A DNA stretch of 64,000 nucleotides from contig OZ037769.1 of the NCBI GenBank assembly GCA_964035545.1, positions 16,708,633 through 16,772,632 on the forward strand, read 5' to 3'. The notes under the pieces were generated by a model. The model worked only from the letters and a program-made list of their open reading frames with translations, did no database searches and was not told the DNA's origin. Shown piece by piece: positions 8,610 to 63,588 of this stretch. This DNA comes from Bugula neritina. Taxonomy: Eukaryota; Animalia; Bryozoa. The stretch's first letter is position 1; each line of letters opens with the position of its first letter. The position numbers and the translations under genes were made by a program.

Positions 8610-8682
8610 AACTCCGTCTTCTCTAAATACTGGTGAATGCTGCAAGAGTGAATACTACTAGATGTAGCTATACTTGTTGGTG

Positions 8683-10197: not shown

Positions 10198-10372
10198 GAT
10201 GCTAATATCATTAATACCAACTGGCCATTTTTTATTTCAATGATTTTGATAGTTTTAATTGGTTTAGTAGTTTTTAGCTTTTAGATCTAGTAAAATTAAA
10301 TTTAGCCATTGATGGAAGGTTATGCAAAGTTTAGACTATAATATAGTCAATTAGTACAAACAAGCTATATTA

Positions 10373-10375
<3 letters not shown>

Positions 10376-10437
<62 letters not shown>
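10376..10437. repeat. (TA)n microsatellite (shorter counterpart at ~21108-21128)
   Basis: Direct reading. Confidence 0.95.
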
Positions 10438-10443
<6 letters not shown>

Positions 10444-11880: not shown

Positions 11881-12304
11881 ATATGAAATGATGTGCCGAT
11901 GTTGGGAGACAGATCCTGAAGATAGACCTGCTTTCTCTGAGATTTCTGAGTTTGTTGGTCGACTACTGAATGGTACGACAACTCCCAGTGCTGGCTCAGA
12001 TAATGATGCTGGTTACTCATACGCACGCTCAACTACAAAGGACATCCCTGATGACTTCCTAGAGTCCAATGAATACGCAGACAACTTGGAGCGTGATGAC
12101 TATTACATTACACCCCTTCCCTCTGCCACGGCACTTACAGTGGTGGATGGTACCCCTAAACCCTCCCCTAGGGTCCCCCCTCGCAAGTATAAAATGACAT
12201 ACTCAATGATTCTCACAATTGGAAGAATATTTCTGGGATTCTGCTTTCTCTCACCATGTTCTATTCATAATAACTGTTATCTTATACTCATGTTGTACTT
12301 ATAA
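11881..12304 (+). CDS. Duplicated last exon of the MET-like RTK with a divergent C-terminal tail (alternative terminal exon or gene fragment)
   Basis: Same acceptor (ctctag|atatgaaatg) and frame as 3647-3914. Matches up to YYITPLPS (3 substitutions), then reads ATALTVVDGTPKPSPRVPPRK... No upstream kinase exons are present in this unit. Confidence 0.6.
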
Positions 12305-14220: not shown

Positions 14221-16815
14221 TTAATTTTGAGTATGGTAACCAAGAGGGTTTGATATGGCTGTCATAGGGGTGGCGTCAGAGGGCCCCACAACTGTCACAC
14301 TAGATTTAGACCACTGGTAATGTCTGTAGGCTTTCACACCAAACAGAAACAGGAAAACTACAAGCATACAGCTGACTCCTATACCTATGGCAGCATTCAC
14401 TCCTACAGGGATGTCAACAGCCGCTGCCGAAGACATCATGGTGAGCAGAATGAAAATCTAAAAATAGAAATGTTTAGGAATATAGCCTAAGAACTTAGAG
14501 AACTTGGAGATATAAGGCTGCACTTTGTAGCAAATAACAGAGAAAGGAACTTTGATACTCTAGGTGTTTTAGGATAGTTTGACTTTAATTAAAGTACTGC
14601 CTTTATGGTAATATTACCAAAGAGAATACATTTTCAACACATGTAACTGTAATTATTATGCATAAGAAGAGGAAACTGTGCTCCGTACAGCCAGTAATTT
14701 GTCAAGTTGGTGAATATAGCGGACATTAACTGAAGCAAGAATGTGGAAGCTCGAGATATTGGTTTGAGTAACATTACTTCCTATGGGAAACTTACTCTAT
14801 AGCTCTGGGAGTGTTTGCTACCCTTGATTGAGGTATGATATACTACTGATCTGTTGTTATATAATAGTTGTTATATAATAGTTGTTGTATAACATACTGC
14901 TATACTGTTACAGTGTATTGTTCATAATCCCTCACTCTGTAAACCTTAAGAAGTTATTTATCACACCTGTGGTTATCATTGAAGTTAATAAACTGCATTA
15001 ATGTTGCACATCTAACCTACATTTACTGTAGAATCTACACATAATATGACCTACATACAGTGTAATGTGTAGACAGGAGAAATAATTCTGGCTATTCATA
15101 GCTTTATTTGTTTCTACTGTTAGCTTTTTTAGCTTTATTTTCAGCTAGTTGGCTATAACACATAAAATAGCTACTACTTCATAACTGTAGGCAAAGAATA
15201 GCTAAAACTAGCTTCACATTTGTTAGCTTTACCAGGAATAAATTTCTGTAAGAATTAAAATTTGTGAGTATTGATTACATTGATAAGATTTCTCCTCAAT
15301 TAATATGATTTTTATACAGTTGGCCAAACATTATTGATATGATTTTAAGAGTATTTTCTGTGTATAAATATTTAAATGGGTTTCAGTTTAGTGTACTAAA
15401 CACAGTCAATAAATGAACATATTACCCGTAGTCTGCATATATATATATAGTTGTTAGAGAAATTGCCGTGTGTTTCTAGCACAATGCTTATACATAATAT
15501 TGTACTAGTATCTGTGCATACTGTAGCCCACTGGTCATACTGTATATTGTATCAATAAGTAGACCTAATAAATTATATATTTCAGTTGATATAAAACGTG
15601 CCGAATGACAGATAATGAATTATTTTATTTTATAAGCTTAATTAAACTATTCAAGCTTTCATTCTGTGTTTGGAAATTTGTGGTTAGGTTTTAACGCTAC
15701 AGCTACTAGCTGGGAGCTTATAAGAATATGGCAGTATATATGGGTGTAATATGACTATATATGATATGTATGTGTAAGGAATATGGCTGTGTGTGTACAG
15801 GCAGCTGACATTATCATATAATTTGAATACTAAACAGGGGAACATAAACACTTTATTGATCTTAGGTAAACAGGAGATTAACTGGAGTTACCTGAGCATA
15901 TTGAACATAATATACTGTATGTCTTGACACATTACTTATATATTATACATGCTGCATGTTGCGTATAAAACATAATATATTCAGGCATATATAAGTAGCT
16001 ATATAGTAAGTTATGTAGTACATAAGTAAGCATTATAGTAAGTCATAAGTAAGTATTATAGCATGTAATGATGAAGTACATTAAGTCATTAGTAAGTCTA
16101 GTAAATCATGCATAAGTAGATATAATTTAAGTCATGATTAAGTACATTAAGTCATGATTAAGTACATTAAGTCATGAGTAGGTATATAGTAAGGATTTTT
16201 TGTATGCTGAGTCTTATTTTCTAGAATTAATGAAATAGTGTTGGAATAAAACATTTCATACATGTACCTGAACATATTATATCACATGTTTCAGAACTTA
16301 TTACTGAAATTGCATAATGAGTCAAGTTTATATCATATATCTTTCTTGCAATGACAGAGTATGTATATAACATGGTATGTCCTAATAATTAATATTTAAA
16401 TGTTGATCTACTGTGAAGATCAGGTAAATAAAATAAACACGAGAAAGAACCATCTGCATGTTTTGCTGAAAAATGTGAGCTTTTATTTAGAGCTAGAGTG
16501 ACTCCTTTTAGACTGAGTTCCTCAACTTCTATAGCTTCAGGTCTCAGTTACAGAAATGTAATGCTTTGTAGTATCTCTGTTAAAAGTCTCTCCCCACCTC
16601 CCCTCCACCCCCTCCTCTCCCCTCCTCCACAAGTTTATTGACATGTTCACTTTTGCAGTCATCCATTCCCATACCATGTATCATTTAGTTCTACTGTTTC
16701 ATTCATGTTGCCTTCAACTATTCTCCTCCAATCGTAGCTACTCAGCTTAAGGCTATAAAGATAATAACTCAGAGAGTAACATATAACTAAACATACGTAC
16801 CTTTCGAGTCTGCAT
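14221..16815 (-). CDS. Small single-pass membrane protein (~83 aa), copy B
   Basis: Micro-exon 16815-16801 (MQTRK) plus exon 14457-14221 (IFILLTMMSSAAAVDIP...HTQN); splice sites conserved with copy A. Confidence 0.75.
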
Positions 16816-17239
16816 AACTCCGTCTTCTCTAAATGCTGGCGAATGCTGCAAGAGTGAATACTACTAGATGTAGCTATACTTGTTGGTGCTGATTAATTGA
16901 CGGAGAAACTTAAAGAAGAAATGTATTAGTTTAAGTTACTCATGCGTGGAGTCTAGGCCTCGGCACTCTCATCATGACAATGCATTTGAAAGAATTATAT
17001 TGAGATGGATTTTACGTCACGGTTGGCTACTATACGTGCATATAATATTATATACGAAGGTTCAATACAGTTGTATAGTTTTATGTTTAGGATTACCCTC
17101 TCTTGACGTGACAGTAAAGTTAGGGCATGCAACTCCAACTACAGAATATATGGGAAATGCACAAAGGCACTTTAGTAATACCTTATGCAATACAACTAAC
17201 TATTAATACACCTATTGGTAATATTATTGTATAGTAATA

Positions 17240-19774
17240 CACAGTTAGTTTAAGGTCATTAGTTTCCAGATTCAAGCACTGCTTTATGTTATATATAAAC
17301 GGTTTCCAGGGGATAGCTCGAACAGTTTTTGTCTCACGTTAACAAATTTGACATGAAAAGATAGCTCTTGCATTCCTCTTTCATATACTTTTTTAATTTT
17401 TCAATAAAAAATTTTCTGAGAAAGTTGTTGCATAATAAGTAAAATTTTACACCCTCCATGTTCCACTGCTGTAGCACAGGGGATTTATTTTATAAAGTCT
17501 AAAAGTTAAACTTGACATTCCTTGATATGTTTTCTCTAATATACTTTCTTTGTTTTTTGAAATTCTGTTTATGCTCTTCACAATTTGGTAAAAACATACA
17601 CCATTTTGCAAGTTTCACTGCAATTTTCTAAATTCTTCATATGGTGGTTCTAGCTACGCTCCTGTGACTAATTATAACATTCCTAGTACGTTTGCCGCTC
17701 TGCGCTATCACAATAACATATAGTACCCTCTCGCACAAATTGGCAATCTATTGGATTTCTGCCAATATAATGTTCCCTGTTTTACATTAGCACTTAGCTG
17801 AATCATCTCACTATGTTACAATAATATATTGAAAATGCCTCAGCACAACATAATTCTTTGTTTGTTTGGCAGAGTTAATTTCAGCTAAATCACTTCACTT
17901 TGCAGTCTTGTCAGTAAAGGTCTGTCTATAGCGCAGCAGGTGTATACTTTCAGTTTCTCTAATTCACATATGATTATTTTAAGTACATTGTATTCTATAA
18001 AATCAATTTAAGGTTTAGTCTAGTGTTCAGTATCTAATTATTATGCATGTATGTTGTCTTACTGTTGAACAAAAGTTAAAAAAAAACTTTACAATTATAG
18101 CCATATTTATTATACATGCGTAGGATTTGCATAAGTTGACAAAAAAAAATTGCAACAAAACAGGGTTGAACCATGACCAACCAACTTGTCGCTGACGCCT
18201 CTAACCTCTGGACCACGCAGTCATCTTTCAAAGACGCGCACTATTTGAGTCATTATCATTACATAAATATTTCGCGCGCAAATGGGTTATAATTATTAGG
18301 CTGTCAATTCATGTTGATAGCAGTCAAAGCAAATGGTTTTGAACAAATAACCCAAAAGTTTAAAAATAAGTAGCTTGCGTATTACTAGCTACAAAAACAG
18401 GTCTGAAATAGACTGGTAAAGCAAGCTCTTATTGTAGAGTTTGCAGATGTGCTCTAAAATAAAACTTAAACTGTATGCTATTACATAAGTATTTGTATTC
18501 GAGAGATAAATGGACATTACTGAGTTTCTGGAAAACAACATACTTGAAGTTAACTTTGACAATGGTGTGTTATTTTCATCATAGCTAGCCTATAGCATAA
18601 ATCTCTAATCATATGAATCTTTATGAAGCCCACAGCTCATGTAAGGGTGGCAATGTAGTTTGAAACTAAAAATTATGTTGCTGCACTGTGTTTATTATAT
18701 ATTATGGAGCAAAATTTGGTTTTTGTAGCCTACCCAAACACATACTACAATGCAGCTTATATGCTGGCAGCTGTAATAAATACTGCCAATAGCAAGGTTA
18801 CTATCACTGCTAGCTCTGTGCAGTATGTAACCTCTTGAATAATTGCGCCAATTTTAAACTCTTGGAAGTTGGCCAAGTTATCATATCGCAGCCAGCCACC
18901 GGAGACAAAGCATCAGAGCTATTCATATAATATTATACTGATGCACTTGGTAGCAGAGTGGCTAATCTAATATAGTTCATAGTTCAACACCCTTTACTTT
19001 AGGAATACAGCCTCTTTTTTTAGGTTTACCTAACAAAGCATGAAAATATCTAAACTGATATTCTGATAATTTAGAGGTACATTTTGAAAACTAGGTTAAT
19101 TGCACTTGTTTGCGCAACAACAATAATAAAATAGATATTATGCAGTATAATAAAAACACACATAATACTATATAATATATTATAATGACAATAATATAAT
19201 ATTATAAGTACCATTACTGCATTTTATAAATCACATGGTTGCCAAAAAAATGTATCACAAATTTTGTAATTATACATCAAAAATAGAACTAGCTAGGCAG
19301 CAGGTTAGAATAGAGTAAATTTTTAAAACATGAAATCATGATTTGACTATTGTTTTATTTAGGCCAACCAACCTAGGAACACAAGATTGGGTTTTAGCTG
19401 ACAGTTTATAACATTTAGCTTTTGAGCCAGCAGCACTGGCACTTGTGAAGTATAGGAAAAGTTAGTGAAGCGAGACTAACAAGCACTCAAATACAAGGCA
19501 TATTGAGACACAATAACAAGTCAGGAGCGTATAAATTGAAAAGAATGTGGAAGGGGGACTATGTTTTTCAACAAGCTATAACTTAAACATGAATTGGCTT
19601 TTGAAAAAAATAAAAAAGTATATTGGAGAACATAAGTTTCTTTATCTTTTCATATTTTTTTTGTTCCTGTGACATTCAACCTGTTCGAGCTATCAGTGGA
19701 ACATTGTTCATATAGAACATAAAGCACCTGGCAAAGAGCCAGAAAATGAAAAGTATGACCTTAAACCAACTGTG
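17240..19774. mobile_element. Non-autonomous DNA transposon (~2.5 kb), imperfect TIRs, TA target duplication (Tc1/mariner- or CACTA/EnSpm-like)
   Basis: Absent from unit A (empty site gtaaTActgtggcaac at 9021-9036). Ends are TA|CACAGTTAGTTTAAGGTCAT ... ATGACCTTAAACCAACTGTG|TA, with further inverted blocks (gatagctcgaacag / ctgttcgagctatc). No transposase ORF. Confidence 0.9.
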
Positions 19775-20444
19775 TACTGTGGCAACACTCTCAAATGTCT
19801 ACCAAAGACTGCTTGCCAACCAGTTACAATCAGCTAAAGATCTATAATAACTGATAATTATTAATGTAGACATAATACACATACACCAATACTTATAGAC
19901 TCCTGCATATACTATATGAATGTCCTTTGTTTTCATTCAACAGATCAACATTATAACTACATCTGTAAAGTGTTGCTAATTTCATTCAATCAACTTTGAG
20001 TATGATCAATAAGTTAGTTGATTTTTTGATGCAATGTGTCTTTTAGTCAGCTATACCAAGCAATAGCCTATTATTTAAAATACATATCTTTGTCTTATAG
20101 AATACCATTTCTAATTGTATTTTTCTAAGTTTGCAAATTGATTAACACCTCTTGCATCTAAATTAGCCAATCAGAAATCAGTGCTAAACTGATGACCCTG
20201 TGAAACAAATGCAAAATGCTGTTTCAAAAGAAAGAAGGAATATACTAAACATGCTTGAATTGAACTAGATAAAAAAATTTGTTAAAAACAGGACACTTTA
20301 ATAAATTTATTAGAGCACACAAAAATTTGATTGTTAGGCATTTGACTGTTTTGAAGAAAAGTTAAAAGTTATTATAATAGCAGAATTTAATGTCAATTTT
20401 ATTAGGTAACATTGGAAATTGCCAAAAACTGCTGGAATTAATGT

Positions 20445-20924
20445 TTATGAAACGATGCAACTAGGTTTTGGACTTTTTACTTTCAGGTCCTCAAGGATTA
20501 AAAATGTTCCTATATTGGTTTTTAAAATTGCATTTTCCTTCATGATTCGTTCTTTTTCTTCTTTCTCTTCTTTCATTTTTTCTTTTAGCCCATCGAGTTG
20601 TTGTTGGTAAAATATCTTGTTTTCACTTTTAGCATTCTTGAGTTTTTCAACTGAAAGCTCCATCTCTTTTGTTCTAGATTCCTCTCTTGCCTCTGCCTCC
20701 TTTACCTTCTTTGTATTTTCCAATAATTCTCTTTCTAATTGTTGCATCTTCAGCTGGTTTTTTTCTGCCTCTTGCTCAAATTTATGTTGTAATTGCTCAT
20801 TTGTGTTTTTCATCTCTTGAATATCCTTTTCATGTCTATAGGCTGCCAGTACTTCCTTTTCTCTAGCCGCAAACCATTCTGTAATCATGTCTTTATATTT
20901 CCTACAAGTTTTAGAATCCACCAT
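20445..20924 (-). CDS. Coiled-coil exon/ORF ending in CaaX (CIVS); paralogous terminal exon (T2) of the atlastin/GBP-like gene
   Basis: Acceptor ttgtag|GAAATATAAAGAC at 20901, compatible with the phase-2 donors at 24235/25884; ends PKPSCIVS*. Duplicate of 9724-10197 with a divergent pre-CaaX segment. Confidence 0.7.
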   Translation of the reverse strand: MVDSKTCRKYKDMITEWFAAREKEVLAAYRHEKDIQEMKNTNEQLQHKFEQEAEKNQLKMQQLERELLENTKKVKEAEAREESRTKEMELSVEKLKNAKSENKIFYQQQLDGLKEKMKEEKEEKERIMKENAILKTNIGTFLILEDLKVKSPKPSCIVS

Positions 20925-22438
20925 GATGCTAATATCATTAATACCAACTGGCCATTTTTTATTTCAGTGATTTTGATAGTTTTAATTGGTTTAGTAGTTT
21001 TTAGCTTTTAGATCTAGTAAAATTAAATTTAGCCATTGATGGAAGGTTATGCAAAGTTTAGACTATAATATTATAGTCAATTAGTACAAACAAGCTATAT
21101 TATAATTATATATATATATATATATATAATTAAGATTTGTGCCACCATGATCACTCATCCTTTAGCAAATTCATTAAAATGTCAGAGTCAGAATAGAAAA
21201 TCAAAACCATGCTATAGATATTTATATATAGATCTGAACATACATAACGAGATGCTATAAGAGATATTTATAAATTTTTTAACTATATAAGCAAAGTATC
21301 CATGTATTATATCAATAATGTAATGAGCGATCATTACGTGGTTTTAAGTTGTTCATAGTTGATAAATATAAGATGGAGTATTTTTCCCAAACTAACATTT
21401 GAATAAGTACTGTCTTGTATTTATAACATAACATCAATAATATATACTACAATGGTTTAACGATGGTCACTGTGAAATCCGTTCTACTTAATTCAACTCG
21501 CCACTTCGGGTTTTTTAAAAATCTGCAATTCTGCTGATTAACTGAAAAAGAAACTTAAAGAAGAAATGTATTAGTTTAAGTTACTCATGCGTGGAGTCCA
21601 GGCCTCGGCACTCTCATCGTGACAATGCATTTGAAAGAATTATATTGAGATGGATTTTACGTCACGGATGGCTACATGTATACCATATTATATACAAAAA
21701 CTTTATTCTATTATTAGATGAATAGCATTATTAGTTTTGGTTTGATGTTTGGGACTATACCCTTTCTTGACACACTGGTAAGGTGAGAGCAGGTAACTTC
21801 TATAACTATAACAATATTTACAATTATCAATGACAACATGTGGTTTTTTTAATAAATTCCTGTAAAGATATTATATAGGGATTGATTTTTATTTTCCTAT
21901 TTATATAGCTCTACCTACATCATTTTCTAAAACCAAATTATTCTTACAATTTTGCCAAAACATTTGTATTATAGTAAGGAAAGATAATTAATCAAATCAA
22001 ACTATGATATACAACATAATTAGACCTGCCTGTATAATACATATAACATTACACCACGTCTTCCCGATATATACACTGGTGCTTTCTAGTACCAGCTCAA
22101 CACCTCATTGCAAGCTGCATTTCATACAATCAATTGTTTAAGCACAAAAATTCAATTTTATTAGTTTGCATTTTTAGGAGTTTAAACAGAAAATAAGAGA
22201 TTAAAGGCTGTAAAGGCAAATTATGGCACGAAATAACAATTACATTTCCATTTTGAACAAAAAACCCATTTTCTGACATCTATAAATATAAGTGCAATAG
22301 AAATTAATGCTGTGCTGTTTTGTGAAGTGGATGCAACGTAATATTACATGAAAAAAAACCCACTCAATATTAAATATGCTCTAATTAAATTGAATAAAAT
22401 TTTACTGAATTAGGATATTTTAAAAAGTCTGAGAACTT

Positions 22439-30993
<8,555 letters not shown>

Positions 30994-32067
30994 GTCTACA
31001 AAACAAATTTAAAACAAATTGAAAATAAATAGGAAAAATAATAGGCCTTTTCTCTCAAATCTATCGCAAAATGCAACTAGCGATATAGTTACACAGCTTT
31101 TCTCATTCACTCAAAGATTATCTTTGAACCATATGCTACATACTCTTTGGGAAATATTCAAACTGCATACTATTCACAAGATATTTTTTACATACTGCAG
31201 ATGTTACATACTGCATCATTAAGTATAGTAACACTTTTAGCGGGAGAAAAACGCTGTAGGTTTTCGTTACAATATAGTGCTATATAACAAGGATTGCACT
31301 TGCATTCCATTTTATATGACATATTAATATGTTCCAGAGATAACAGTCAAACTTCATGTAGGATTTTCAGTAAAGTTAGGATAACATAAAATTTCTTGCT
31401 CTATTATAGATTATTTGCCATACCTACTCTAATTTGCTACTTCTGTCGTTTCATGACGTGTGAAACTAGAAAATTTTCTTAGAAATCAAATGCTATGAAA
31501 TTACAAGAAACGACAACCTTCAAACACTCGGTAACAGATTTTCAGCACATGCAAGTTTAATGACTCAGATTAAAATGGATGCTTGCTAGCTGTAGCAATT
31601 AGCACAGTAAATTATAAAACTGTAACGACTAGCTGCTAGATAAAATGAGTTTGTTTCCAGTATAAGATACCAGCGTATAATGACTCTGTGTAGTTAACAA
31701 AACTTACAGAGGTTTGTAGTTATCCTACATTTACTTATTTATAACTAGCAATTATAGTAAACTGTAAAAAAAACTCACTTTTTTATGTCAAACTCTTATT
31801 CTGAAGACATTTTATTCTCAGAGAAAGTCCAACTGATAAAGAGGATGCAGTAATTGTGAGCGAGCGATTCTCAGTTATAATGAGTCTATGTCTGCGCTGA
31901 TCACGTAACATATGCCGGTGAAAGAGCCGGGATGTGTACTTTATAGAGCAGAACTCTTTGCTGTTTAGTGATACACAGTGTCCCAGCCCTATTGAACAGT
32001 ATCGGGTTAAAACCTAGATGATACAATTTACATAACAATAGATGTTAGATGTCACATGCTGTACTGC

Positions 32068-38189: not shown

Positions 38190-41100
38190 ATGAATAAGGA
38201 AACAATAACGTTTCAAATTGGTCACTTATCGAACTTTGTAGGAGCTCATTGGTGGAACCTTCAGGTGTGCGATAATAAATATTAATATAAAATTAAATAA
38301 TAAATATAATTAAATTAAATTTAATATAATCTCTTTATTAGTTTATAATATCTGATAGTGGTGGCCATACTCATATTCGTAATCATAGTCATGCTGATAG
38401 TGATAAGTGATGATCAGTCTCAATTTGAACCTTATACTTATACTTATACTTAATAACTTATCCTTATAGTTATAGTTATACTGACTTATAGTTATACCAA
38501 CAATTCTAACTTCTAAGTCTACCCTTATTGCCTATTGTCTAACAACTAATTTTAGTCTTACATTTACACACTCGCATTGATAGTGACAATCACTGCTGAT
38601 TCTTAAGTTTGTTTTATATCGCATTTTGATATACCATAGTTTCAAATGGACTGTGTTTTTTAAATGAGTTTCAAACTTGTTCATGTTGTAGGAAAAGCTA
38701 TAGTTCATTTTGCTTCTGTATTCCTAATTAATTTGTATTTTATTGCTCATTCCCAAATATATTGTTTGATACTCTTATGTATTACAATCTTGTGTTATGA
38801 ATTAAAGGCAAAGCCATATGATAAACTCAAGTTACTTAAGAAGTCTTATGTATTTTATTCATTTCCAACTAAATAATTCACTCTTACTATGAAACATAGT
38901 CAGTGACAAGTCTAAGCTATTAGTATTAATAACAGTACCACTGTAGTAATTTATGTAACTACTATGCGTGGGTTCCTAGCTTGTAATTATGTCTATTTAT
39001 CTACACCAATAAAGTATTTAGGTAAAAGCTTCCAAGTTTATTTACTACTAATTATATAAAAGATACAGCACGTACACAGATTAGAGATTACATCTTCGCT
39101 TAGTTAACACGCTCTCTCTACTGCAAAACTACTACTAACTAAGGCCTATCACGTGACGCACTTGGATAGGCTGAAGGAATGCGGGGGACGCGCGTATTAC
39201 GTCCTCACTACACCGCCCCCTCCAGCAGAAAGCCCTACTTTCTGATAACACAGATTAGATAATTCGAACATAAAATGTTATAAAACTATATATATATAAA
39301 AAAACTGAGAGAGCGTGTGGCACATAAAGAAAAACATGGCTATGTACAGTAGTAAGAACATATACATATATAAAAAAATATAACAGTAAATGTACAATGG
39401 CACCGGCGGGAGGCACTATAAGGGAATAGTTTGTAGAGGTAGCTGTATACTGGTAGGTTACTATATTGTTACACTGAGTAATTGTCTGTGAGCACTGGCG
39501 TGAGAAGGGTCTGTAATGGGGCACCACCTGCTGTACCATCACGGATAGGGAAAGGAGGGACATCACCTTCAAGCACTTCCTTTCATTCGGGCTACAGAGG
39601 CAGAGAGGGCCCGGAGTTCTGATGCGGCGGCGGAGATTCTTGGTGTCAGTCTTTGCACCTCTTTCTCTAATTCTCGTATCCGCTCTTCTGCCTCGCCTAG
39701 ATTCCTGGCGGGGGCAGAGTGTCGATTGGGGGATGAAGATGGCCAACGCCGCTTACGAGACGGCCTTGGGGAAACAGGGGGGGAGGGACGCCATCGCTGT
39801 GGTATATCGATGCGTCGTAACACGACTCTTGGTATAGAGTCGGGGTGAGGCACTGTGCGTGCGGGGGGTGAGGAATGGGATATGCGTGGTTTCCTATATC
39901 CGGGTGGTTTAGGGCAGGGTCCCTGTGTGATGGTCCTGGGTGCGGGGAACTCCTGGCGCAGCCGTTCATATCGAACTGGGTCTGATATGAACGGTCGGAT
40001 GAGATTGAGGAATTGTGGAAAGGAGGATTCGTCGACTTCGAATAGGTGTCCAATATGGCATCCCATGGTTCGTTGGTGACGGAGGATGTAGTCCCTGTGG
40101 TAACTATATTCACCACAGGGACAAAAGGTGGTGAAGTAATGTTGGGGAATATGAACTCGGAGTCTTCGTGGGGTAGTGAAGTGAAGCTGGCATAAACGGC
40201 AGGTGGTGCATTGGCGGTCTCCTTTGTGCTCTCGTATCAGTGTTTCCGTATCTGTTGTAACCCAGCATGATTGTTGTAGGAGTGCCTCCGGAAGAGTAGT
40301 GGGAACGGGTTCCTCGTTCCAAGCCATTTCTAGTGACGGCATGTCACCAGATAGAGGAGAGAGAGCGGTATCTAAAAGAGCAGAATTACTGTTAGATCGG
40401 ATATGATCTTTACACCATAATTCTGATGACAACCGACTGTTACTAGTCTGGGAGTCATACATCTTTTCAGATAGCACTCGAGGGACTGAGTCGTGTCGTG
40501 TAGACTGACAGAGAGACATAGTGTCAAGCTCCAGATCTAGTAGATCGTCGGCCATCTTTATGTTCTCGTCGCCTTTCACGTAGGACTCAGTCCCCAGTAG
40601 TTGTGATTCAATCAAGGCGATTAAATCAGAACTGACTGATGGTAGACTGGTTTCCATGAGTGGAAATGTTAGCTCAGAGCAAGCTTACCTGAGAACCCGG
40701 TATTTGTAATCATACTCAGCGTTCAAGCTTGGATGTCCGTGGATTGAGTTTGAATGCGTCTTCCCTTGACAACGTCAGCGTACGAAAAGACTGGGCAGCG
40801 TGGTTGTTGCGCACGGCTGGAACTATTTGCCTCGGGCGTAGTAGTTTTGTTTACTACTCCGCCTTCGCAAAAGTTGAGATTTCCGTGGTGTTCACAACTC
40901 CCACGCTTTGTTGCCAGTCTTTCCGTACGGCGCCCAGCTAGACTTTCATAACTGCCGTTTGTAACACGGTCACATATGAAATCTTTAAGGTATGCTGGGG
41001 GTTGTCTAGTACGCTGTCCCCGTTCCAGGGGAGGTGACGCATCAGCTGGAGAGGGAGTTATAGCTGTTGGTTGGGGCGGCGTACTCACTGGTGGGCTATT

Positions 41101-44100
41101 TTGCTCCACCTGTGGTGTTTCTGGCCCGCCGTTGGTGGTGGTGTTCCCCTCTCTGCTGTTGTCTCCAGATGGAGCCCCTCCCACGGGGGGGTTTTGCACT
41201 TCCGGACGCGGATGCGGAACCGGAAGTGGTGGGGGTAGACTTGGTACTGGGGGCGGTGGGCGCACTTCCGTTGGTGGGAGTGGCGTCTCCTGCCTCACTA
41301 AGTCCTCTCCCCGCGGCACAACCACTTCAAATTCTGGTCCATGCCGTTGCCGCCCACGCGTTACTGTCTGCCTCCTGGGCTCCAACAACGGGGGGGGCTG
41401 CTCCTGCTGCTCCTGGGCTAGCCCAATACGGTTTCAAGCGGGCTTCGTTCTGGACAGAGACCTGTCCAGATCGCTCCAACTTGTACGTATGATTGGGCAT
41501 AGCCTCAACTACTACGTAGGGTCCCACAAACTTAGGCTGGAGCTTAGCCGCTTGTCCTCGACGCCTACGGTAGTTGATCATCCACACCCAGTCCCCAGTT
41601 CGATAGAGGGGTGGTTCCTGAGAGTCCTCTCGCCGTACCTGCCACTGCTTTGCCCGCAGTATTTCGTGTGCGGCCCTCAGGTCCTCTATCAATTTACTGG
41701 CATACTCGTGGATGGTATAGTCCTGCTCTGGGATGTGGTATGTGAGGTGGTCAGGCACTCGCGTCTCTCGACCGAGCATCAGGAGGTTAGGGGTTTCCCC
41801 CGTACTGGTGTGTGGTGTACTACGGTAGGCCCGCATGACTTGCGGTAGTACCGTATCCCACTCCTCCTGACCCCGGCCGAGGAGCAGGCTGCGCAGTGCA
41901 TCGCCCAACATGCGATTGTTGCGTTCTACCACCCCGTTGCCCTGAGGATGGTACGGGGTGGTCCTGCTTTGGTTTACTCCCCAGAGGCGGCAGAGGTCGC
42001 TCAACAGTTGGGACTGGAATTGAGCCCCCTGGTCCGAATGTATTTGCTCAGGTAGTCCAAGATAGCAGAATACATTTTGGTCCAGCACCCTGGCCACCGT
42101 GGGGGCGGACGCATCTGGAATAGCCAGGGCATCCGCCCACCGTGTAAAGTGGTCGGTTAATACTAGGATCCAACTGTTTCCCCTGGGGGTGACGGGCATG
42201 GGTCCGACTAGGTCGATAGCTACCACCTGCCATGGCCTTCCAGCATATAGCCGACGCCGTCCCGCTTCACCAGGGAGACGGCCATGCTTGCTGGCCTGGC
42301 AGATTTCGCATTGTCTGACTCTACGCCGCACCTCACGCTCCATGCCGGGCCAGTACCACCGGAGTTGTAACTTGGAGAGAACCCTGCTCACCCCGGCGTG
42401 GGCTTGCTTGTGGGTGTCCCATACTAACTCCCGGCGTATGGCGGCTGGGCAGATCACCCTTTTTCTGCCGTATTGGTTGTTGTGAGCAGCCACTGTGATG
42501 GTCAGCAGACCATCTGGCCCGATCCGCAGGGAATCCCAACGTTGGCAGTACAACCGTAACTCGGTGCATCCCTGCCGCAGTTGTTCTTCACTGGGTTGCC
42601 GCCCCTCCTTTTTTGGCACGATATACGTCGGCTACCACTCCAGGGAGGTCCTCCTGAAGTCTTCGTAGCTCTCTAACGTTATCAGCCAAGACAGGATTGG
42701 CACGGAGGCGTTGGATAGCCTCCGGGGGCGTAGAGGCCTTCTGTAGGAGTTGACCCTGGTCCCAGTCATACTCCGTTTCAGAGTGATTCAGTGCTCTCAA
42801 CTCGGATTTTGGAGGACCTCCGTCCCTCTTCTCGATGTTGAGGCACTGTTTACACCCCTCGTCCGGTCGCCGGCTCAGCCCATCAGCATTGCCGTGTTTC
42901 TTACCGGGTCGGTGTTCGATCCGGTAAGAGAACTCGGCCAGGACCTCGAGCCATCGGGCGACTTGGCTGGACGGTTCTGCTCTCTTACATAACCAAATCA
43001 AGGAGGCGTGGTCGGTCCGCAAGCGGAACTTCCTGCCGTATAGATAAGGTCTGAAATGCTTCACCGACTTGATTACTGCCAGCAATTCCTTTCGGGTAGT
43101 GCAGTAATTTCGTTCAGTGGGCGAGAGAGACTTACTGTAGTAGGCCACGACTACTTCGCGGCCCTCCTGCACCTGGGACAGCACAGCGCCGACATTTTGG
43201 TCACTGGCGTCAGTATCGAGGATGTACTCCAGGGCAGGGTCTGGATAGGCCAGGATAGGGGCCTCCAGCAGGCGGCCTTTGAGGCAGTCGAACGCTCTCT
43301 GTTCGACGGGAGTCCACTGCCAGGTCACCCCCTTTGCGGTGAGCCGGTTTAACGGCTGCGCTACCCCCGCAAAGTCTGGTATGTATTGCCTGTAATACCC
43401 TACCAGCCCCAGGAAAGCCCGTAGCCCGGTCAAATCCTGGGGGGTTACCCAATCTTCTATAGCTCGTACCTTTTCAGGATCCGTCGCCACGCCGTGGCGG
43501 CCGACGATGTGCCCCAGGTACTTCACCTCTGGCTGCAAGAGAGCGCACTTGGAGGGTTTGAGCTTCAGATTGGCGCCTCGGAGTCGATCGAAGACCTCCC
43601 GCAGACGGCTAACGTGCGTCTGAAAGTCTGGGGAGATCACGATGACGTCGTCGAGGTACACTAGCAGTGTCTTCCAGTGGAGTCCACTGAGGACCTGTTC
43701 CATGAGCCGCTGGAACGTGGCGGGGGCGGAAGTCAGTCCGAAGGGGAGGACTTTCCACTTCCATAAGCCGTCCCGCGTGATGAACGCCGCCTTCTCCTGG
43801 GCGTCTGGGCTGAGGGGGACCTGCCAATAGCCGCTCAACAAGTCTAGCGTACTGAAGTACTTGCTGCCGGCTAAGGCGTCCAGAGATTCGTCGATCCTGG
43901 GTAAGGGGTAGGCGTCCTGTATGGTCACGCTATTGAGCTTGCGATAATCCACACAGAACCGCCAACTGCCGTCTTTCTTTCGGACCAGAACGACCGGTGA
44001 ACTCCACGCGCTATGCGCTGGCTCGATGAGGCCGCGGTCCAAAAGATCCCGGACTTGTTGGCTTACCTCCTTTTCCTTCTCGGGTCCCAGCCTCCTGGTG

Positions 44101-47100
44101 GGCTGCCGAATAGGGGTAGTCCCTGCAGCCAGCGGTATCTCATGACGGACGGCCGTGGTCAGGCCGACGTCATGGTCCCCACTGCTGAACACGTCGCTAT
44201 AATCACGTAGCAACTGAGCCATAGTCTGGCGTTCCACGTTGCCCGTGCAGCCGTTACACGCTGCCTGGTATAGCTCTTTGACGTGTGATGGGACGGTCCC
44301 CCGCCTAACTGACGGGCTCTGTTGGGGACCTTCCGTCGCAGCTCCCAGCGACGGCCCTACATCCTCCTCCTGGATGGAGTGGAAGCGACCCAGCATGGAT
44401 CCTGACGGTAATTGTACCGCTTCGGAGAAGGGGTTGACACACTGCACCAAGATCTCTCCTCGGTCAGTCAGCCGGTTAAGACTGCTGGCGAGTTGGATTC
44501 TAGAGTGCGCACCTTCGACAACCCCTAGCCCCGAGAGTTGGCTATTGTTCACTCTGCAGTGAACGGTAGCCCGGGAGCGGCCGGGTATAGTACAGTTGCG
44601 TACTACCTGCACACCTCCCGCTAGAGGACGACCGAACTTGTCGACACAGGTGAGCTCTTTGCCGCCCATTAGCATGGCTGACTTGCTAAAGTCAATATGG
44701 CACCCGTGTCTCTTCAAGAACGGCATCCCTAGTATGGCATCTTCCTCCAGTGGGCTGATGACGAAGGTTTCCTGAATGGCTTGGTCGCGGACGCGCCCAG
44801 CCAATTCGATGATACCGTAGAAAGGAATCCGTGACCCGTCAGCTAGGGTGCCCGGTTCCCCGGTATAGGGAGCTAAGGCTCCCCTCTCCTTGAGAGGGAG
44901 GGTGTCGAAGACCCGACGGCTGAGGATATTAGTGGTACACCCGGAGTCCAACAGGAAGGTGACGGCTTTACCGGCCACCTTCCCTGGCAAGAAGTAGCTG
45001 CCTCCGTGAGGTTGTACCCGTATTCCCCCAGCGTGCTCGATCTCGGCCGAACGGGGCTGTGCCCGTTTGTTCCGCGGTTTGCGGGGCCGGTGAGAGTTTC
45101 CTTGCGGGGAGGTGTTCTGATCCTCCCCGATGCCCTGAGGGGCCTCGCTGGTCTGTTCCATTACTGGTAACGGACTGAAGCGGTTGGTGAGAGGCAGAGA
45201 GAAGGGGTCTCGTGGTCGACCTGGTTGGCTGGTGCGGCGAGGTGTTTGCCATTGACGGGGGGTGTGTCGCTGGGCCCGTACGGGCTCCTGGCGACACCCA
45301 CCCCGTTTTTCTCTCTGCTTGTGTCCGCGGAGCTCTGGGGGTCTCCGGGGAGGTTGTGGTTTCTGCTGCCGTTTGAATCGTGGGCCGCTCAGGGGGCGGT
45401 GTCCCTGATTGCCGCTTTCCCAGCGTCGCATCATGGGTCTGGGGGGTTTTGCTGCCGTCCTCTTACTCTTCCTTGAGTGGTTGTATGTTATCGTCGCCAC
45501 CAATTGTCCCAGTCTAGTCATCAAGCGGCTTATCTCCGTCTCTATGGGGGTTTTAGTGGTCGCGGCAGCTATGCGGACCGGATGGTCTGGTTCCCTAGAG
45601 GGCTGGGGCGTGGCCTCCTCCGTCTTATAGAGTTGTTCGGCTCCAGCGTAGGCCTTGTTCTCTTGGATTGCAGCCTCAATTGTGGTCACTCCCTTTGCTT
45701 GTAACTGGTGGTGGAAGTCCAAAGAATTGAGAGACTGTACAAAGGCTTCGAATGTGTAGTGCCGTCTGTGTGTTTCTGGCAGATCGCTATACGCGGTCCG
45801 TGCCAGTCTCTGCACCAGAGTGGCGTGGTCAGAAAGCGGTGTACATGTCTTGCGGAGTAATCCTCGCAGTCTGGACTTGGCGACGGCAACGGGCATGCCA
45901 AAACGGGCCCGTAGTGTAGCAATGATCCCGTTTATGCTAGGCTTCCACCCGTACGGCTTGGCTTCTCCCGTCAGTGCCATCCGCAGTTTTGTAAGGGTTA
46001 CTCTTAGCGGCCATCTTGCAATGGCGGCAGTTTCACGGAATTCTTGAACGAATTGTTCAATATCCTCGCAGCCTGTGAACACGGGAACCTCCAACATGTT
46101 CCTATATACCTCCTCTCCAGCTCCGAGAGGGCCTATAATAATGTTCTGCTCACCTCCTTCCATTGAAGTTACTCCCTCGTCCATGATGTTCTAATACTTC
46201 TCATTGTTCTCATACAGTAGCTAGAAATCCCACCGCTGCCACCACTGTAGTAATTTATGTAACTACTATGCGTGGGTTCCTAGCTTGTAATTATGTCTAT
46301 TTATCTACACCAATAAAGTATTTAGGTAAAAGCTTCCAAGTTTATTTACTACTAATTATATAAAAGATACAGCACGTACACAGATTAGAGATTACATCTT
46401 CGCTTAGTTAACACGCTCTCTCTACTGCAAAACTACTACTAACTAAGGCCTATCACGTGACGCACTTGGATAGGCTGAAGGAATGCGGGGGACGCGCGTA
46501 TTACGTCCTCACTACACCACTACCAGTAAAGTCCACTAGTACTAGTTACTGACTCTAATTTATGTATTCTATTAACTTTACCACTCATGATGTTTATAAT
46601 AATTGTTTCACTGATTGATTGTTTACTGTCAACTTATCTGGCAATATTTATATTTAATTATTAAATAAAGTAACGAGAAAATTTATATACAGGAAGCTTC
46701 ATTTGTGTATGAAGGAAGTGGCTCAGGTGGCGAAAAAGCTGAAATTAATCACGATGTTACATTTCGAGAAGGTTTAAATCTTAAGGTAACAACATTTACC
46801 CTGTTTTATTTATTTTTTATTAACTTGTCTATCATTAGTGGCTATATCTCATATATAATAAGGTCACCAAGTAGTCTACACACTTGTCAATGACTACACT
46901 TGTTTTACCAACTATTCAACCAATCAGAATTATGCTATGTTGTGCTACAAACTAGATTTTAGTAACCAGTGTTCCAAACTCCCATGTGTGTGTGTATAAA
47001 TAGTGAGTGTGTTGCTGTGTGAACCAGGGGGAAGTGACTTACACTCCACGACTCATTGCTGTTGATCTGTCGGAAGCGCTTCACTGTCTCAAACAGGAAG

Positions 47101-50100
47101 GAGTTCTGTATGACTTTGAGACTGACGGAGACTGCATTAGTTGGTGAGTGTCACTGTACTTATTCCCTGGGGTTGTTGAATGACGAAGGGGTTGCTTCTC
47201 GTCACTCAATGTCACAATTTCTAAAAGTTAGTCTAAGTTCATGTTGTTTATATTTAGGGAGAATGTATAAAACAAACAAAAATTCACACAAGTTTATAGT
47301 CACTATCCCTGTGAGATCCCCTAATGGAAAGGATTTTTATTAAATCAGGCTAAGGACTTATTTAGATGGGGCACAGGAGTAATTATGACTGGATGCTCTT
47401 CCTAACATCACCTTTACTGGGGATCAACCTCATGCTTTTGTGTGTACTAAGCCAGTGCTCTAACCCCTAGACCACGACTGCTCCCTACGCTGTGTACAAT
47501 AGTGCCCATCTTTATGTGCTTTAAGGTCACACGAAGTCACTCTTCACAAGGAAGCAGAGAAGTACAAGAAGAATGAGTTTCTTAGAGATCTAGAGAGAGA
47601 AGACAATCCAGAACAAGATGTGACAGTGAGTGTTGTCTTCCCATGCTGAGAGTTGAATAGTGTATTAATTAATATACAGAATTGCACAGCACGGTTATAT
47701 TTATAAGTTTTCTTCTTTCCACTATAGAATTAAAACAAAACTCAACTATAATAATTTAATACTTCACTAGTAGAGTTATATCCTTTGTAATCTGTACTAT
47801 TTACCTTATTATTGTATGTAACTTGTGTTTGTTTACTTCCTCTTTTTTCATTTTCATCTTTAATGCCTGCCTAAAGATAAAGAAAACTGAGAAAGGTTTT
47901 GTAGGTTGAATATATGCTAGTGCCTTTATAGTATTAAAGCAAACTACTGTCATTATATTATGTTGGTTTAAAGGATTGCTCAATCTTAGTTTATTACAAT
48001 CACATTATAATTATGAACTATAATCTAGTGTATGCAAACAATTGTGACTTTGCAAAGGGATATGTGCCTAGAAAACAGCTTTTCAAAATTCCAATTTTGA
48101 GGGAGGTAAAATTTTCAGCCATGAAAAAGAATAGCCTAATACGTGACGTGTGAACGCCAGTAACTATGCTGCACGTGCTAACTATAACGCTAGTATTCAA
48201 GGTTGCTGAGCACAACATCAACCAATAACGCTCAAGCAGTTACAGCGCGCTATATAGGTCAGCTTTGGTGTGCCCGTAATATTGCACAATCTGACCTAGT
48301 TTAGATCGATCGCAGGCATTCATCCTAAAAAATGCATGTTTTTGCAATGCTTTTTTCTAATGTTTACAAGCAAAATATGGCCTAATGTTATCACATACAT
48401 GTTATTTAAAATGTCAAAAAACTATAGATTGAGATAATTCACATTTGCACTTCTATAAATATACAAATTACGAGCTGAAAGATCACATCTCACAATCATA
48501 TTTCTATAGTTATTCATTTGTATAGTCACGTGACCAGCAGGAATGCTGGCGCTGTTACGTCACATTTCCCAGTTCATTTTAAAATCGGCGTTTTGGCTGT
48601 TACCAATCTACACCCTCAACTTCAACTAACTTTTTCTACCTTTGGTCAAATGCTTTTTGTCACTGCATGCTTAGAAAAACACAATATTATGTGTGTTTGA
48701 CCTAAATGGCCATTTATTAAACAAGATAGAGCAATCCTTTAACTCCTAAATACAGCTGAAATATGTGGATTTTGTTTAGTATTCATTTGCAAAGGGAGAC
48801 AAGGAGAGTTAAAGCCGAGGAGAGTTAAAGCCGTTTTCTCTATTTATAGGAGGTTGATGAAAGTTCGTCCAAAGAAAAAATGGAAGCAGAGCTTCTTGAC
48901 TCCACTGAGACTGAGAGTAAAGGTATGTCATTACACCATATCTCAGTGGTCTCATCCCAGATAGAGGCTAGGCTAAATTTCCCAGTTAGACGCTATTTTT
49001 TATTTTGGTACCATTACATACAGTAACATACTTATAATATATGCCCACATATATGTTGCATTGATTGCTAAATAGCTAATAGCTATAATAGCTAATAGAA
49101 ATTATCTGGGATAATATTCCAATTTTCACAGATATGTGTATGGGACAAAAAAGCAGTAATGCATTAATAATAGATATTATCTTTAATGAATACTTATTAA
49201 CGAAATATCTTTTCAAACAGCAAGAAGTATAGAATATGCGAAATAGTAAGTTAATGCAGATTAAAAGAATTTATTTATGTGCTAAATAGCAAGCAACTGA
49301 TCCAAGTTTATTTAAATATACTTATATTTCAATAATATTCAAGTAACTTGCACATAGAATATATATTGCACCAAAATTAATAAATAGCGTCTAACTGGGA
49401 AGCATTTATGTGGGATGACACCATCTCAGTATTACATCATCTCAGTATTACATCACTGTGGCTATGTATAAATAATTTTAAAAGTTTAACTGTTGGATGG
49501 CAAATAATTTTCTTTAAATTCTTTCTTTCTCAGCAGATGAACTAAAAGGTTCAGTGAAAGAAGACATCAGAGAGAAAGTGTACAGTCTAGACGATTCTGT
49601 ACACAGTTGGTGTGACTACTTGAGGGTGCACCTGCATCCCAAGTCGCTCTCTGTGGTGAAAGGTTACTATCAGACTGAGTAGGTCTTAGTGTACTCTAAG
49701 TTATACTCTTAAGTTACTAGTGTACTCTAAGTTATACTCTTAAGTTACTAGTGTACTCTAAGTTATACTCTTAAGTTACTAGTGTACTCTAAGTTGTACT
49801 CTTAAGTTACTAGTGTACTCTAAGTTATACTCTTAAGTTACTAATATACTCTAAGTTATACTCTTAAGTTACTGGTATACTCCAAGTTATACTCTTAAGT
49901 TACTGGTATACTTCAAGTTATACTCTTAAGTTACTAGTATACTCTATGTTATACTCTTAAGTTACTAGTGTACTTGATGTTATCACTCATTGCCAAAACC
50001 ATTTGCAGTAGAATTTATCCCCCCCCCCCCCACAATTTAAAAGCTGATGAAGGTTATCTACATTTAGATGTTTGATAGACTACTTAAATTACTTAGAACA

Positions 50101-53100
50101 ATATTTCTAATCTGTGTGAAGCCAATACCCTGCTCTAAGTGCATTGTTGTGGTATAAGCGAGCAACCCTACTTGAACACTTTCTCACTTCCTGTTTGTAG
50201 CAACGTACTGAATCTACATAACCTGGGATCAGATATGTACACCCAGCAGTCTTCAAAACTGAGAGAGGAACTGGAAGATAAGATCCACTTCTTCACAGAG
50301 GAAGCTGATAACCTACAGGTGTTACTATGTAATACTGTACTTAGTTATGATAACCTACAGGTGTTACTATGTAATACTGTACTTAGTCATGATAACCTAC
50401 AGGTGTTACTCTGTAATACTGTACTTATTCAAGCCATGTGTACCACTACAATGCCATTACTATTCTCTAAACCGGAACTTTTCACATGTACTAGTTTGTA
50501 GCGCTGCATTTGCTATAAGAGATTGTAATATGTAATAATACAGTTATATACCGACATTGTATTTTATTCACTTGCATCATGCCACACCCAGTATGCTGTA
50601 CTAAATATGCTGCGTATGCTACCTGTGTTACAGGGGTTTCACATGCTGGCTGATATATACGATGGATTTGGTGGCTTAGCCTCTTCTGTAGCCTCAGATA
50701 TTTCTAATGAATACTCAAAAAGAGGCTGTATCAGTTTCTGCCCCTTCTATAGCCAACGAACTTCTCAGGTACTGCGTAATGAGTACATAAAGTATGCAAG
50801 ATAATTTATATTTTGTATGTATACTTAATAAGTCTGTGTATACTCCTTGTATCGATCTCGGTAAGATTCATGGAAAGATGTCAAAAATCGATCTCCATCG
50901 ATCTGAGCTGGTCGGTCTGTAGAGATTGAACTCAGATCTCAAGGCAATAAGACCATGGAAAGACGCCAGATCGATCTGAGAAGTAGAAAAAGACTGTTCG
51001 CTAAAGTGTTGTCTGCTAATAAAAATGATGACTTAGTGTTAATTGCTAAGCAAAGTACATAATAATTACGAGAGCCACTTTTTCAGATGCCAAAACTTTG
51101 ACTTTCAGTACAATGATTAAAAAAAACTCAATTATATGAAAGTATAAATAGTAAAAGGTACAAAAAAAAGGAGCATTTAAATTGAATTTAAGTGACTAGT
51201 AAATCTTACTTTCATTAGTCATTTGCTGCGTAATTTCAAGCCTAACAATCCTGCAAGTTTATGAATAATCTGCAAGACAGCTATTTATTTTATATAAGCT
51301 GTCAAGCTAAAAAATTAAAATTAATTATCATAAATTGGCCAAACTACTTTACTCTAAAGGCTTTGCTGCTTATAGATTATAGTTGGCGTTAATTTCTAGA
51401 CTGCAACAATCTTGTTTTCTAATCGCAGTAGCTTTAATCCCTCAGGTGGGCAAACAAATTATCCGTGAAAAAATTATTTACTCAAGAGCAGGCAACTACG
51501 CAAGATTGATCTGACACTCTCATGGAAAACCGATAGATCTGAGCACAATTCTCAGATCTATCTCTATGAGGTCCATCTGAGATCTGTCCATGGAAAGCCG
51601 GTGTTCATAAGTTTGTGTATACTTAGTTGCTAAGCAACAGAAGCCATTTTCTATAGTTTATAGTTAGTGAATAAAATACTACAACCAAAATACATGATGT
51701 GTATAAGGATTGCATCATTCTGAATTCTAATCTGTTTTCTGATGTAGGACAACTCCCAAAGTCTACACGATCTGATAAACTCAGTACTGAGTGTGGTGAG
51801 GCTGATTGAGGCTGGGTTCACAGTCGTCCCTTTAAGTCTAGTTGACAATCCATGGAACTCAGTACATCATAAGCACGCACAGTTGCCCGGTCTTGTATAT
51901 AAGGTGTGTGTTCTACTCTCTCTCACCCAGTATGGTCTTATCACAGCTGCCCCATTATTCTCATGAGAGTATCAACATACTGCTTTGTTTTACTTTCTTG
52001 TTGGAAGACAGGCTAAATAGTACATCAGGATTTAATTTACTGCTAATGTCTCTGTCAATATTGCGTTCACTGGAGTTATTGTCTCAATCACACAGGTTCT
52101 ATATTGGAATACAATATACTGCTATATTCAAACTGTAGTAAACATAGCTTATTTTCGCTATTGTATTATTGTATTTATTTAAAACTGTATTATATAGAAT
52201 AATCTCCCCTACCATATTACTGTATTATATAGAGTCATCTCCCCTACCATATCGCTGTATTTTATAGAGTCATCTCCCCTACCATATCACTGTATTATAT
52301 AGAGTAATCTCCCCTACCACATCACTATTATATAGAGTCATCTCCCCTACCACATCACTTTATTATATAGAGTAATCTCCCCTACCATATCACTGTATTA
52401 TATAGAGTAATCTCCCCTACCATATCACTGTATTATATAGAGTCATCTCCCCTACCATATCACTGTATTATATAGAGTCATCTCCCTTACCATATCACTG
52501 TATTATATAGAGTCATCTCCCTTACCATATCACTGTATTATATAGAGTCATCTCCCCTACCATATCACTGTATTATATAGAGTCATCTCCCCTACCATAT
52601 CACTGTATTATGTAGAGTCATCTCCCCTACCATATCACTGTATTATATAGAGTCATCTCCCCTACCATATCACTGTATTATATAGAGTCATCTCCCCTAC
52701 CATATCACTGTATTATATAGAGTCATCTCCCCTACCATATCATTGTATTATATAGAGTCATCTCCCCTACCACACAAGTGCTGTATTCGCTGCCGCACTG
52801 GACACAGCTACGTTGAGTCACAGACTTCTAGAAAGTTCTCTTCCACTCTATCACCTGACAGATACTCTCAGCTCAGCTGGAAGAATGGTATACATGTATA
52901 CTTTACACTACATTCACTCCTGTCTTACTGACAGAAGACTCTGGCCATGTGGCCAGCATCGTGAGAGACTTAGTTCTTAGTTCTACCTGGTAACCCTTGT
53001 CCTCAGGGGTGCTCACAGGGGTGGAGCACTTTAACAGACTTTATGGGACTTATTGAACAAGAATAAGTTGTCTTCTCTTTTTTATTTAGAGGCTGGAAAC

Positions 53101-59928: not shown

Positions 59929-63588
<3,660 letters not shown>

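Follow-up and report, generated by a model that had tools for sequence, protein, structure and literature searches.

A conserved, element-borne accessory gene of transcription-factor-like build, unrelated to env, lies behind pol and ahead of the 3' LTR in a Ty3/gypsy element, as the first-pass annotation had claimed; its conservation, an excess of silent changes and ties to pol in distant relatives all argue for this assignment. The gene, ORF3, encodes a 362-residue protein with a double zinc-finger domain and belongs to a widespread protein family not modelled in Pfam. As the best explanation, held tentatively, we infer for every functional step that the product is a nuclear double-zinc-finger protein that would bind the LTR DNA of its own element and raise transcription.

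Architecture and state of the element

The element spans 7.6 kb on the minus strand of the window, i.e., the whole 64-kb stretch of DNA analysed, and all features given below for it lie on that strand. It is assigned to Ty3/gypsy because Pfam places its domains in the order protease, RT, RNase H and integrase (PR-RT-RH-IN), and this order is accompanied by the other hallmarks, namely paired TG...CA LTRs, a target-site duplication, a primer-binding site and a polypurine tract. The 5' LTR (46246..46516) and the 3' LTR (38942..39212), each 271 bp, are identical, and are flanked by the 4-bp duplication GTGG (46517..46520, partner 38938-38941). Within the 5' LTR, an AATAAA signal is found at 46346 and a TATA-like box at 46362, with two CpG-containing 8-bp palindromes (46499 and 46460) upstream of the latter. 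The primer-binding site (46227..46244), with its TGG starting one base past the LTR, is presumably a match to tRNA-Leu, and the polypurine tract lies at 39213..39223. Gag, protease, RT and RNase H are encoded by an ORF of 1198 aa (42588..46184; RVT_1 E 3.6e-36, RT_RNaseH_2 E 5.2e-35, Asp_protease_2 E 2e-5 in Pfam) whose frame ends before the integrase. The integrase (Pfam H2C2, rve and SH3; 41327..42631) is read in a different frame, and a Pro-rich pol tail in a third frame (40723..41433) ends with a stop at 40723, 65 nt before the ORF3 ATG. In the gag region, a stretch at 45384-45425 has the spacing of a CCHC zinc knuckle and keeps the histidine, while the three cysteine positions hold other residues.

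In the window copy, pol is broken twice, by frame shifts near 42590-42630 and near 41330-41430, and these breaks coexist with identical LTRs and an intact ORF3. The window stretch is present in one sequence run, X1, the contigs of which disagree with the window near both breaks; these are therefore possibly private lesions or assembly errors. The window element may thus be a non-autonomous young copy, or its pol breaks may stem from assembly. X1 contigs matching ORF3 reach a depth of 2400-3600 vs about 85-95 on the flanks, which suggests many copies, with the reservation that depth itself is not a copy number. In a single X1 contig, of depth 120 and with 31 letters on its short side, the pol tail continues into the region of the polypurine tract without ORF3 (window 39236-40870), a weak hint of an ORF3-less derivative of the element.

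The AT-rich, CpG-poor flanks have a CpG observed/expected ratio of 0.37; the ratio is 0.79 over the element and 1.13 over its LTR. Rfam gave no match within the 64-kb window. With the exons described next, the flanks are in keeping with an animal host. About 8 kb from the 3' end of the element, at 28706-31008 (minus strand), are exons of a GTPase similar to guanylate-binding proteins and atlastins (Pfam GBP, E 4e-7 and 4e-5). Tyrosine-kinase exons lie on the plus strand at 1650-1982, 3624-3914 and 11852-12304, the last one duplicated. Recent segmental duplications with 94% identity pair 3474-9027 with 11709-17240, and 9025-11663 with 19775-22329, and within the duplicated region (3474-22329) is a coiled-coil exon with SCIVS or TCIIS at its end, possibly the C-terminus of a GBP. 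Minisatellite arrays with units of 31, 35 and 47 bp are located at 49625-50014, 52083-52885 and 61640-62597, respectively.

Composition and predicted parts of ORF3

ORF3 runs from ATG to TGA at 40657-39569, on the same strand as gag-pol, and its 362 codons contain zero internal stops. The order pol, ORF3, polypurine tract and 3' LTR agrees with the intact sense ORF in the env slot described in the first-pass annotation. ORF3 is a real ORF and more than a chance frame, because 74 relatives are found for it at E<=1e-3 by protein search and 241 by profile.

Every motif quoted in the first-pass annotation is present in the protein. Residues 1-120 (40298..40657) are acidic and Ser-rich (net charge -13, 17% Ser) and predicted to be disordered, with an acidic-hydrophobic window at residues 11-49. 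The double zinc-finger domain comprises residues 121-240 (39938..40297), with C153, C156, H169 and H173 as ligands of finger 1, and C179, C181, H194 plus C200 or H201 as those of finger 2. It is followed by a Pro/Arg-rich linker, residues 241-311 (39725..39937; 25% Pro, 18% Arg, net charge +14), which carries RKRR at 301-304 as a candidate nuclear localisation signal. The C-terminal residues 312-362 (39572..39724) are predicted to form a coiled-coil helix, and the leucine-zipper-like pattern noted there is indeed present, with 87% of the heptad a/d positions being hydrophobic. AlphaFold returned two confident parts, residues ~121-240 and a long helix at 312-360, the remainder being of low confidence, and a homodimer prediction for residues 115-362, run without an alignment, gave no interpretable pairing (score 0.03).

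A retroviral or errantiviral Env is ruled out for ORF3, since the protein has neither a membrane segment nor a hydrophobic leader by hydropathy (best 19-residue Kyte-Doolittle mean 0.93) and contains zero N-glycosylation sequons. Likewise, none of 37 distant relatives has a 19-residue hydropathy above 1.8. The first-pass annotation had stated that signal peptide, TM segment and furin site are all missing; by hydropathy this holds for the first two, but RKRR does fit the furin consensus R-x-K/R-R, albeit in a protein without a secretory signal. In bZIP factors, a helical basic region directly precedes the zipper. ORF3 does not conform to this arrangement, with three prolines between RKRR and the helix and low model confidence over residues 275-317, and a bZIP assignment was therefore rejected.

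A family defined by an atypical double zinc finger

A profile search over 1.84 billion representatives identified 241 proteins at E<=1e-3, 150 of them listed, that share a domain of ~110 residues in which a canonical C2H2 finger is combined with an atypical CxC-H-C/H finger. No Pfam family scores above cut-off for ORF3, and Pfam therefore gives no sign of the already catalogued family feature that the first-pass annotation had named as counting against its reading. Across 65 aligned members, three ligands (C156, H169 and C179) never vary, and four more (C153, H173, C181 and H194) are each retained in 62-64. For a closer comparison, the window core was combined with 35 of 54 non-redundant cores that have good domain coverage, a set selected for intact cores. 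In these 36 selected cores, with identities of 21-51%, all seven ligands are invariant (36/36), and an eighth, C or H, is present 3-14 residues past H194 in 36/36.

The earlier proposal of two tandem zinc-finger-like motifs applies fully to finger 1, which has the canonical spacing C-x2-C-x12-H-x3-H (C153, C156, H169 and H173 in 36/36 selected cores), and less well to finger 2, which is non-canonical (C-x-C-x12-H-x(3-14)-C/H) with a variable fourth ligand. Classical tandem C2H2 factors have canonical fingers joined by a TGEKP-type linker. A second finger of that type was considered for ORF3 and rejected in view of the C-x-C spacing, the C/H fourth ligand and a linker of five residues that is not TGEKP-like. 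Basic residues of the finger helices are kept among the 36 cores (R/K at position 164 in 32/36, R165 in 27/36, R188 in 29/36). Two members, P0127 and P0178, carry a tandem duplication of the zinc domain.

Searched against the PDB, the core profile matched C2H2 proteins at E 1e-9; with the single sequence, the best PDB match was at E 0.06. The model of the zinc domain has a pLDDT of 95.9, and the folds closest to it are those of tandem C2H2 pairs in complex with DNA. These matches are weak (Z 3.3-3.8 over the middle 50-57 residues, rmsd 2.3-3.8); none reaches Z >=5 or spans the whole domain, and the top row, Kaiso on methylated DNA, is tied with many others. Foldseek with ORF3 against the PDB and viral models returned nothing at E<=1e-3, and a VIA search with the whole ORF3 protein matched generic long helices only. 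In the ESM Atlas, the whole protein stays below 0.9, and the best matches of the domain are clusters without names (0.94-0.95), followed by C2H2 clusters; these serve as leads only.

Beyond the zinc domain, sequence identity is lost in the family, but the layout is kept. Among the 37 distant relatives scored, i.e., the members with tails of at least 100 residues, 33 have a coiled-coil pattern in the last 75 residues (29/33 with near-identical rows merged), where 2.1 are expected from shuffles, and a basic cluster occurs in 21/37 distant members. An acidic N-side combined with a basic C-side is found in 12/16 distant members and in all 19 close ones scored. An acidic-hydrophobic window of activation type, for which the criterion is a rule of thumb, is present in the window protein, in 34/43 close relatives and in 8/24 distant ones (4.6 and 1.2 expected, respectively).

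Evidence for purifying selection

The protein search, with 5939 candidates, yielded 74 relatives at E<=1e-3, of which 11 cover at least 97% of the query. The other 63 are partial, in line with decayed copies and short contigs. When cluster members are added, 14 full-length relatives with 52-70% identity to the window protein are available, and these keep the start and end regions. For a neutrally drifting copy at 62% identity, the analytic probability of an open frame is about 4e-4. Protein databases favour open frames, but 14 open ones at such divergence are hard to obtain thereby. Among X1 copies, 19/31 listed ORF3 differences are silent, vs 31% expected (p=5e-4, rough dN/dS 0.28), with no stops; within the zinc domain, the proportion is 7/9. 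This test draws on the 40 rows with the best support out of 83, 31 of which fall in ORF3, all from the single DNA run X1, which is possibly the source of the window itself. Because the 14 diverged full-length relatives stay open and silent changes dominate among the X1 copies, these comparisons of sequences indicate that ORF3 is under purifying selection. Poor conservation among related elements, a dN/dS near 1 and frequent stops, which the first-pass annotation had named as signs against its reading, are thus not seen among the full-length relatives and the listed X1 differences.

Linkage to pol and the bryozoan members

Genomic context is visible for 7 of the ~250 relatives, through fused or read-through proteins, and in all informative cases the zinc domain comes directly after the integrase. 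P0250 (1810 aa) contains PR-RT-RH-IN followed in one frame by the zinc domain (hhalign E 1e-22), and its end is of coiled-coil type; its Pol is 56% identical to the window Pol over 810 columns. It is a single unclustered protein, and the fusion may be due to a lost stop or to gene calling. In P0221, a gypsy-type protease lies ahead of the zinc domain. Integrase or pol-tail sequence runs into ORF3 parts in P0131, P0149, P0159 and P0198, the stretch that precedes the zinc domain in P0131 matching the Pro-rich pol tail of the window, and P0085 reads out to a polypurine tract. Searches of metagenome contigs, viral contigs and prokaryote genomes confirmed no locus of relatives.

Of 20 distant clusters looked up, three have organism names, all of them bryozoan: Watersipora subatra XP_067940964/XP_067940963, with two zinc domains, and XP_067944745, and Bugula neritina KAF6040922. 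The corresponding bryozoan records P0092/P0249, P0184 and P0251 carry the ORF3 domain, one of them in two copies. XP_067944745 and KAF6040922 have an extra N-terminal segment in common. The bryozoan proteins may be either domesticated genes or annotated element copies. In a domain tree with few columns and many unresolved forks, pol-linked members are placed in both main arms, and the bryozoan proteins occupy three separate places among unnamed members. Such a distribution would be expected of an old element gene that was domesticated repeatedly, or of element copies that were annotated as genes.

Possible routes to an ORF3 transcript

The splice-like site ttctcag/gtaag, which the first-pass annotation had suggested could serve a subgenomic RNA, is located at 40684..40695 as described, but its proposed role as acceptor is unsupported. 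A crude consensus scan ranks it as the top donor among the 405 GT sites of the element, 31 nt upstream of the ORF3 ATG, while its acceptor score is middling, equalled or beaten by 98 of 556 AG sites. Candidate routes to an ORF3 mRNA are splicing from a donor near the gag start, an internal promoter, and read-through or fusion to Pol as in P0250. An internal promoter is described for some Oikopleura Tor elements in the accessible text of PMC4402516.

Comparison with known accessory genes

The statement in the first-pass annotation that third ORFs are typically env-like, with nuclear accessory genes known mainly from complex retroviruses, is too strong, since CERV, mdg1 sORF1 and the rotifer ORF3s are all known from animal Ty3/gypsy elements. 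For the same reason, a possibly undescribed class of non-env accessory genes is not at hand; what looks new is the protein family.

CERV, encoded by the Ty3/gypsy element Cer1 of C. elegans, is a non-env nuclear accessory protein that acts in RNA export, according to the available text (PMC10309623). As described there, it shares with ORF3 a zipper or coiled coil, a basic NLS-like motif and a putative zinc finger, and is predicted to multimerise. Unlike ORF3, CERV has 517 aa, is expressed from an mRNA of 5 exons that has frames in common with gag, and features a C4-type loop and a G-protein-like domain, with no obvious homologues outside nematodes in that account. ORF3, by comparison with this description, is a single ORF located behind pol, its product has fingers of C2H2 type and an acidic N-terminus, and no G-protein-like domain is found among the fold-search matches listed for it. 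In view of its His-containing fingers and its position as a single ORF after pol, ORF3 was not assigned to the CERV type.

In the mdg1 group of Drosophila, sORF1 and sORF2 are reported as accessory ORFs in the accessible part of 10.1101/2025.03.14.642691. As for ORF3, sORF1 is a non-env accessory ORF under selection, and it shows nuclear staining and a predicted helix-turn-helix, but with about 110 aa it is much shorter, lies upstream of gag and has no zinc fingers in that report (10.1101/2025.03.14.642691). The ORF3s of bdelloid rotifer LTR elements (PMC5408684) are non-env genes in the env slot and include coiled-coil ORFs. The types given in that text, however, are GDSL esterases, DEDDy exonucleases and TM or coiled-coil proteins, and the word 'zinc' is absent from its main text (PMC5408684). 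The same applies to 'zinc finger' and 'accessory' in the main text of a survey of env-carrying metazoan gypsy elements (PMC13524379), and to 'ORF' and 'zinc' in the available text of an annelid survey (PMC8556966). The texts of PMC2774666, PMC13547354, PMC13486581 and PMC6338049, to the extent accessible, do not describe an ORF3-type gene. More generally, among the papers listed by searches of the open full-text literature, none describes in its title, the opening of its abstract or its accessible passages a C2H2 ORF placed behind pol in a gypsy element of an animal; Repbase, Dfam and GyDB, subscription journals or supplements may hold one.

Tandem C2H2 factors of the Kaiso, ZBTB, HIC2 and CTCF type resemble ORF3 in that finger 1 is canonical with F and L core residues, and in that the two-finger unit superposes, if weakly. 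ORF3 differs from these factors by the C-x-C finger 2 with its far, variable fourth ligand, by the hydrophobic nature of the 5-residue linker, and by the embedding of the fingers in a larger unit of ~110 residues, which finds no match for its flanks and falls below Pfam cut-offs. Complex retroviruses have trans-activators, namely foamy virus Tas/Bel1, HTLV Tax and HIV Tat, which are accessory genes near the 3' end that drive their own LTR. The likeness of ORF3 to them consists in the location of an accessory gene near the 3' end, its function being deduced only; no sequence or fold similarity was found, and the retroelement family differs.

Proposed function and alternative explanations

A disordered acidic-hydrophobic N-terminus, paired C2H2-type fingers with basic helices, an NLS-like motif and a coiled coil together make up the usual build of a dimeric activator. 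In the reading that we tentatively prefer, RKRR would take the protein into the nucleus, the coiled coil would bring ORF3 copies together and thereby lend specificity to two short finger pairs, the fingers would read DNA, and the N-terminus would recruit co-activators. For a gene kept by selection on the element, the plain target would be the LTR of the element itself, and action on it would establish a positive feedback loop, such as the trans-activators of complex retroviruses provide. Several observations speak against an activator, including the atypical finger 2, the 5-residue linker, the weak fold matches and the absence of an activation-type window from 16/24 distant relatives. C2H2 fingers also bind RNA and protein. 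The finger-helix residues differ little even between very divergent members, a pattern compatible with a common ligand no less than with LTR reading specific to each family. Furthermore, CERV as the one characterised animal precedent considered here is dispensable for transcription in the accessible account (PMC10309623).

The precedent of CERV suggests an RNA-level regulator, in analogy to HIV Rev, in which fingers and the Arg-rich linker would bind unspliced genomic RNA and the coiled coil would multimerise, so that export is promoted or strong donors are blocked. We consider this unlikely, but it accounts for several features. The element has consensus donors, the strongest of them just ahead of ORF3, and the full-length RNA may therefore need protection from splicing; the linker is strongly basic, the gag CCHC-like stretch of the window copy lacks its cysteines, and CERV, with leucine zipper, KRKK signal and Cys-rich finger, is needed for export and not for transcription in the text available (PMC10309623). 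The resemblance of the ORF3 fingers to DNA-binding C2H2 pairs, the lack of an obvious export role for the acidic-hydrophobic N-terminus, and the lack of a CERV-like G domain in the ORF3 model and among the fold matches listed argue against an RNA regulator. A sequence-specific anti-silencing factor like VANC, binding its own element and keeping off DNA methylation or repressive chromatin, appears improbable. The CpG richness of element and LTR relative to the flanks, including the LTR palindromes, would be consistent with such a role, but any young element, as the identical LTRs show this one to be, should be high in CpG. Kaiso as the top fold row, tied as it is with many others, points in the same direction, as does the predicted dimerisation via a coiled coil of VANC21 of the plant VANDAL DNA transposons (accessible text of PMC13547354), whereas in Pfam and the PDB no chromatin enzyme or reader proved homologous to ORF3. 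An anti-silencing factor also overlaps with the activator model, and sequence cannot separate the two.

That ORF3 could be an integration-targeting module, tethering integrase to chosen chromatin like the chromodomain of chromoviruses, is suggested by the position of the zinc domain just after the integrase in all informative cases, and by the single frame that joins them in P0250. We regard such tethering as distinctly improbable, since the window ORF3 is separate with its own ATG, the start region is kept in the 14 full-length relatives, and the N-terminus of activation type is not required for this purpose; P0250, for its part, is the single unclustered protein with a possibly artefactual fusion noted above. 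Finally, the named bryozoan proteins that carry the domain, the N-terminal segment shared by two species, and the third-position GC of 0.47 in ORF3, compared with 0.63-0.64 in pol, could indicate a captured host zinc-finger gene, either a passenger or one serving the host. This origin was already disfavoured and is very improbable, because selection acts among element copies, and because each main arm of the sparsely resolved domain tree contains pol-linked members, with the bryozoan proteins in three places.

Simple LTR retrotransposons are usually taken to depend on host transcription factors. Extending the preferred reading of ORF3 as an LTR-binding activator, it is possible, if rather doubtful, that a broad and old invertebrate Ty3/gypsy lineage encodes its own sequence-specific transcription factor, with an undescribed double zinc-finger domain and a coiled coil, that would activate or de-silence its own LTR and form a trans-activator loop in env-less retrotransposons, the gene having been domesticated more than once in bryozoans. 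If true, a conserved DNA-binding activator encoded by the element would mean self-driven regulation in a gypsy lineage, and one ORF and one 271-bp LTR would constitute a small testable unit for how transposons escape silencing in animals whose genomes are methylated. Irrespective of what ORF3 does, it defines a zinc-finger family that lacks a model and comprises at least 241 proteins; this family is a mark of these elements and seems to have been a source of host genes in bryozoans.
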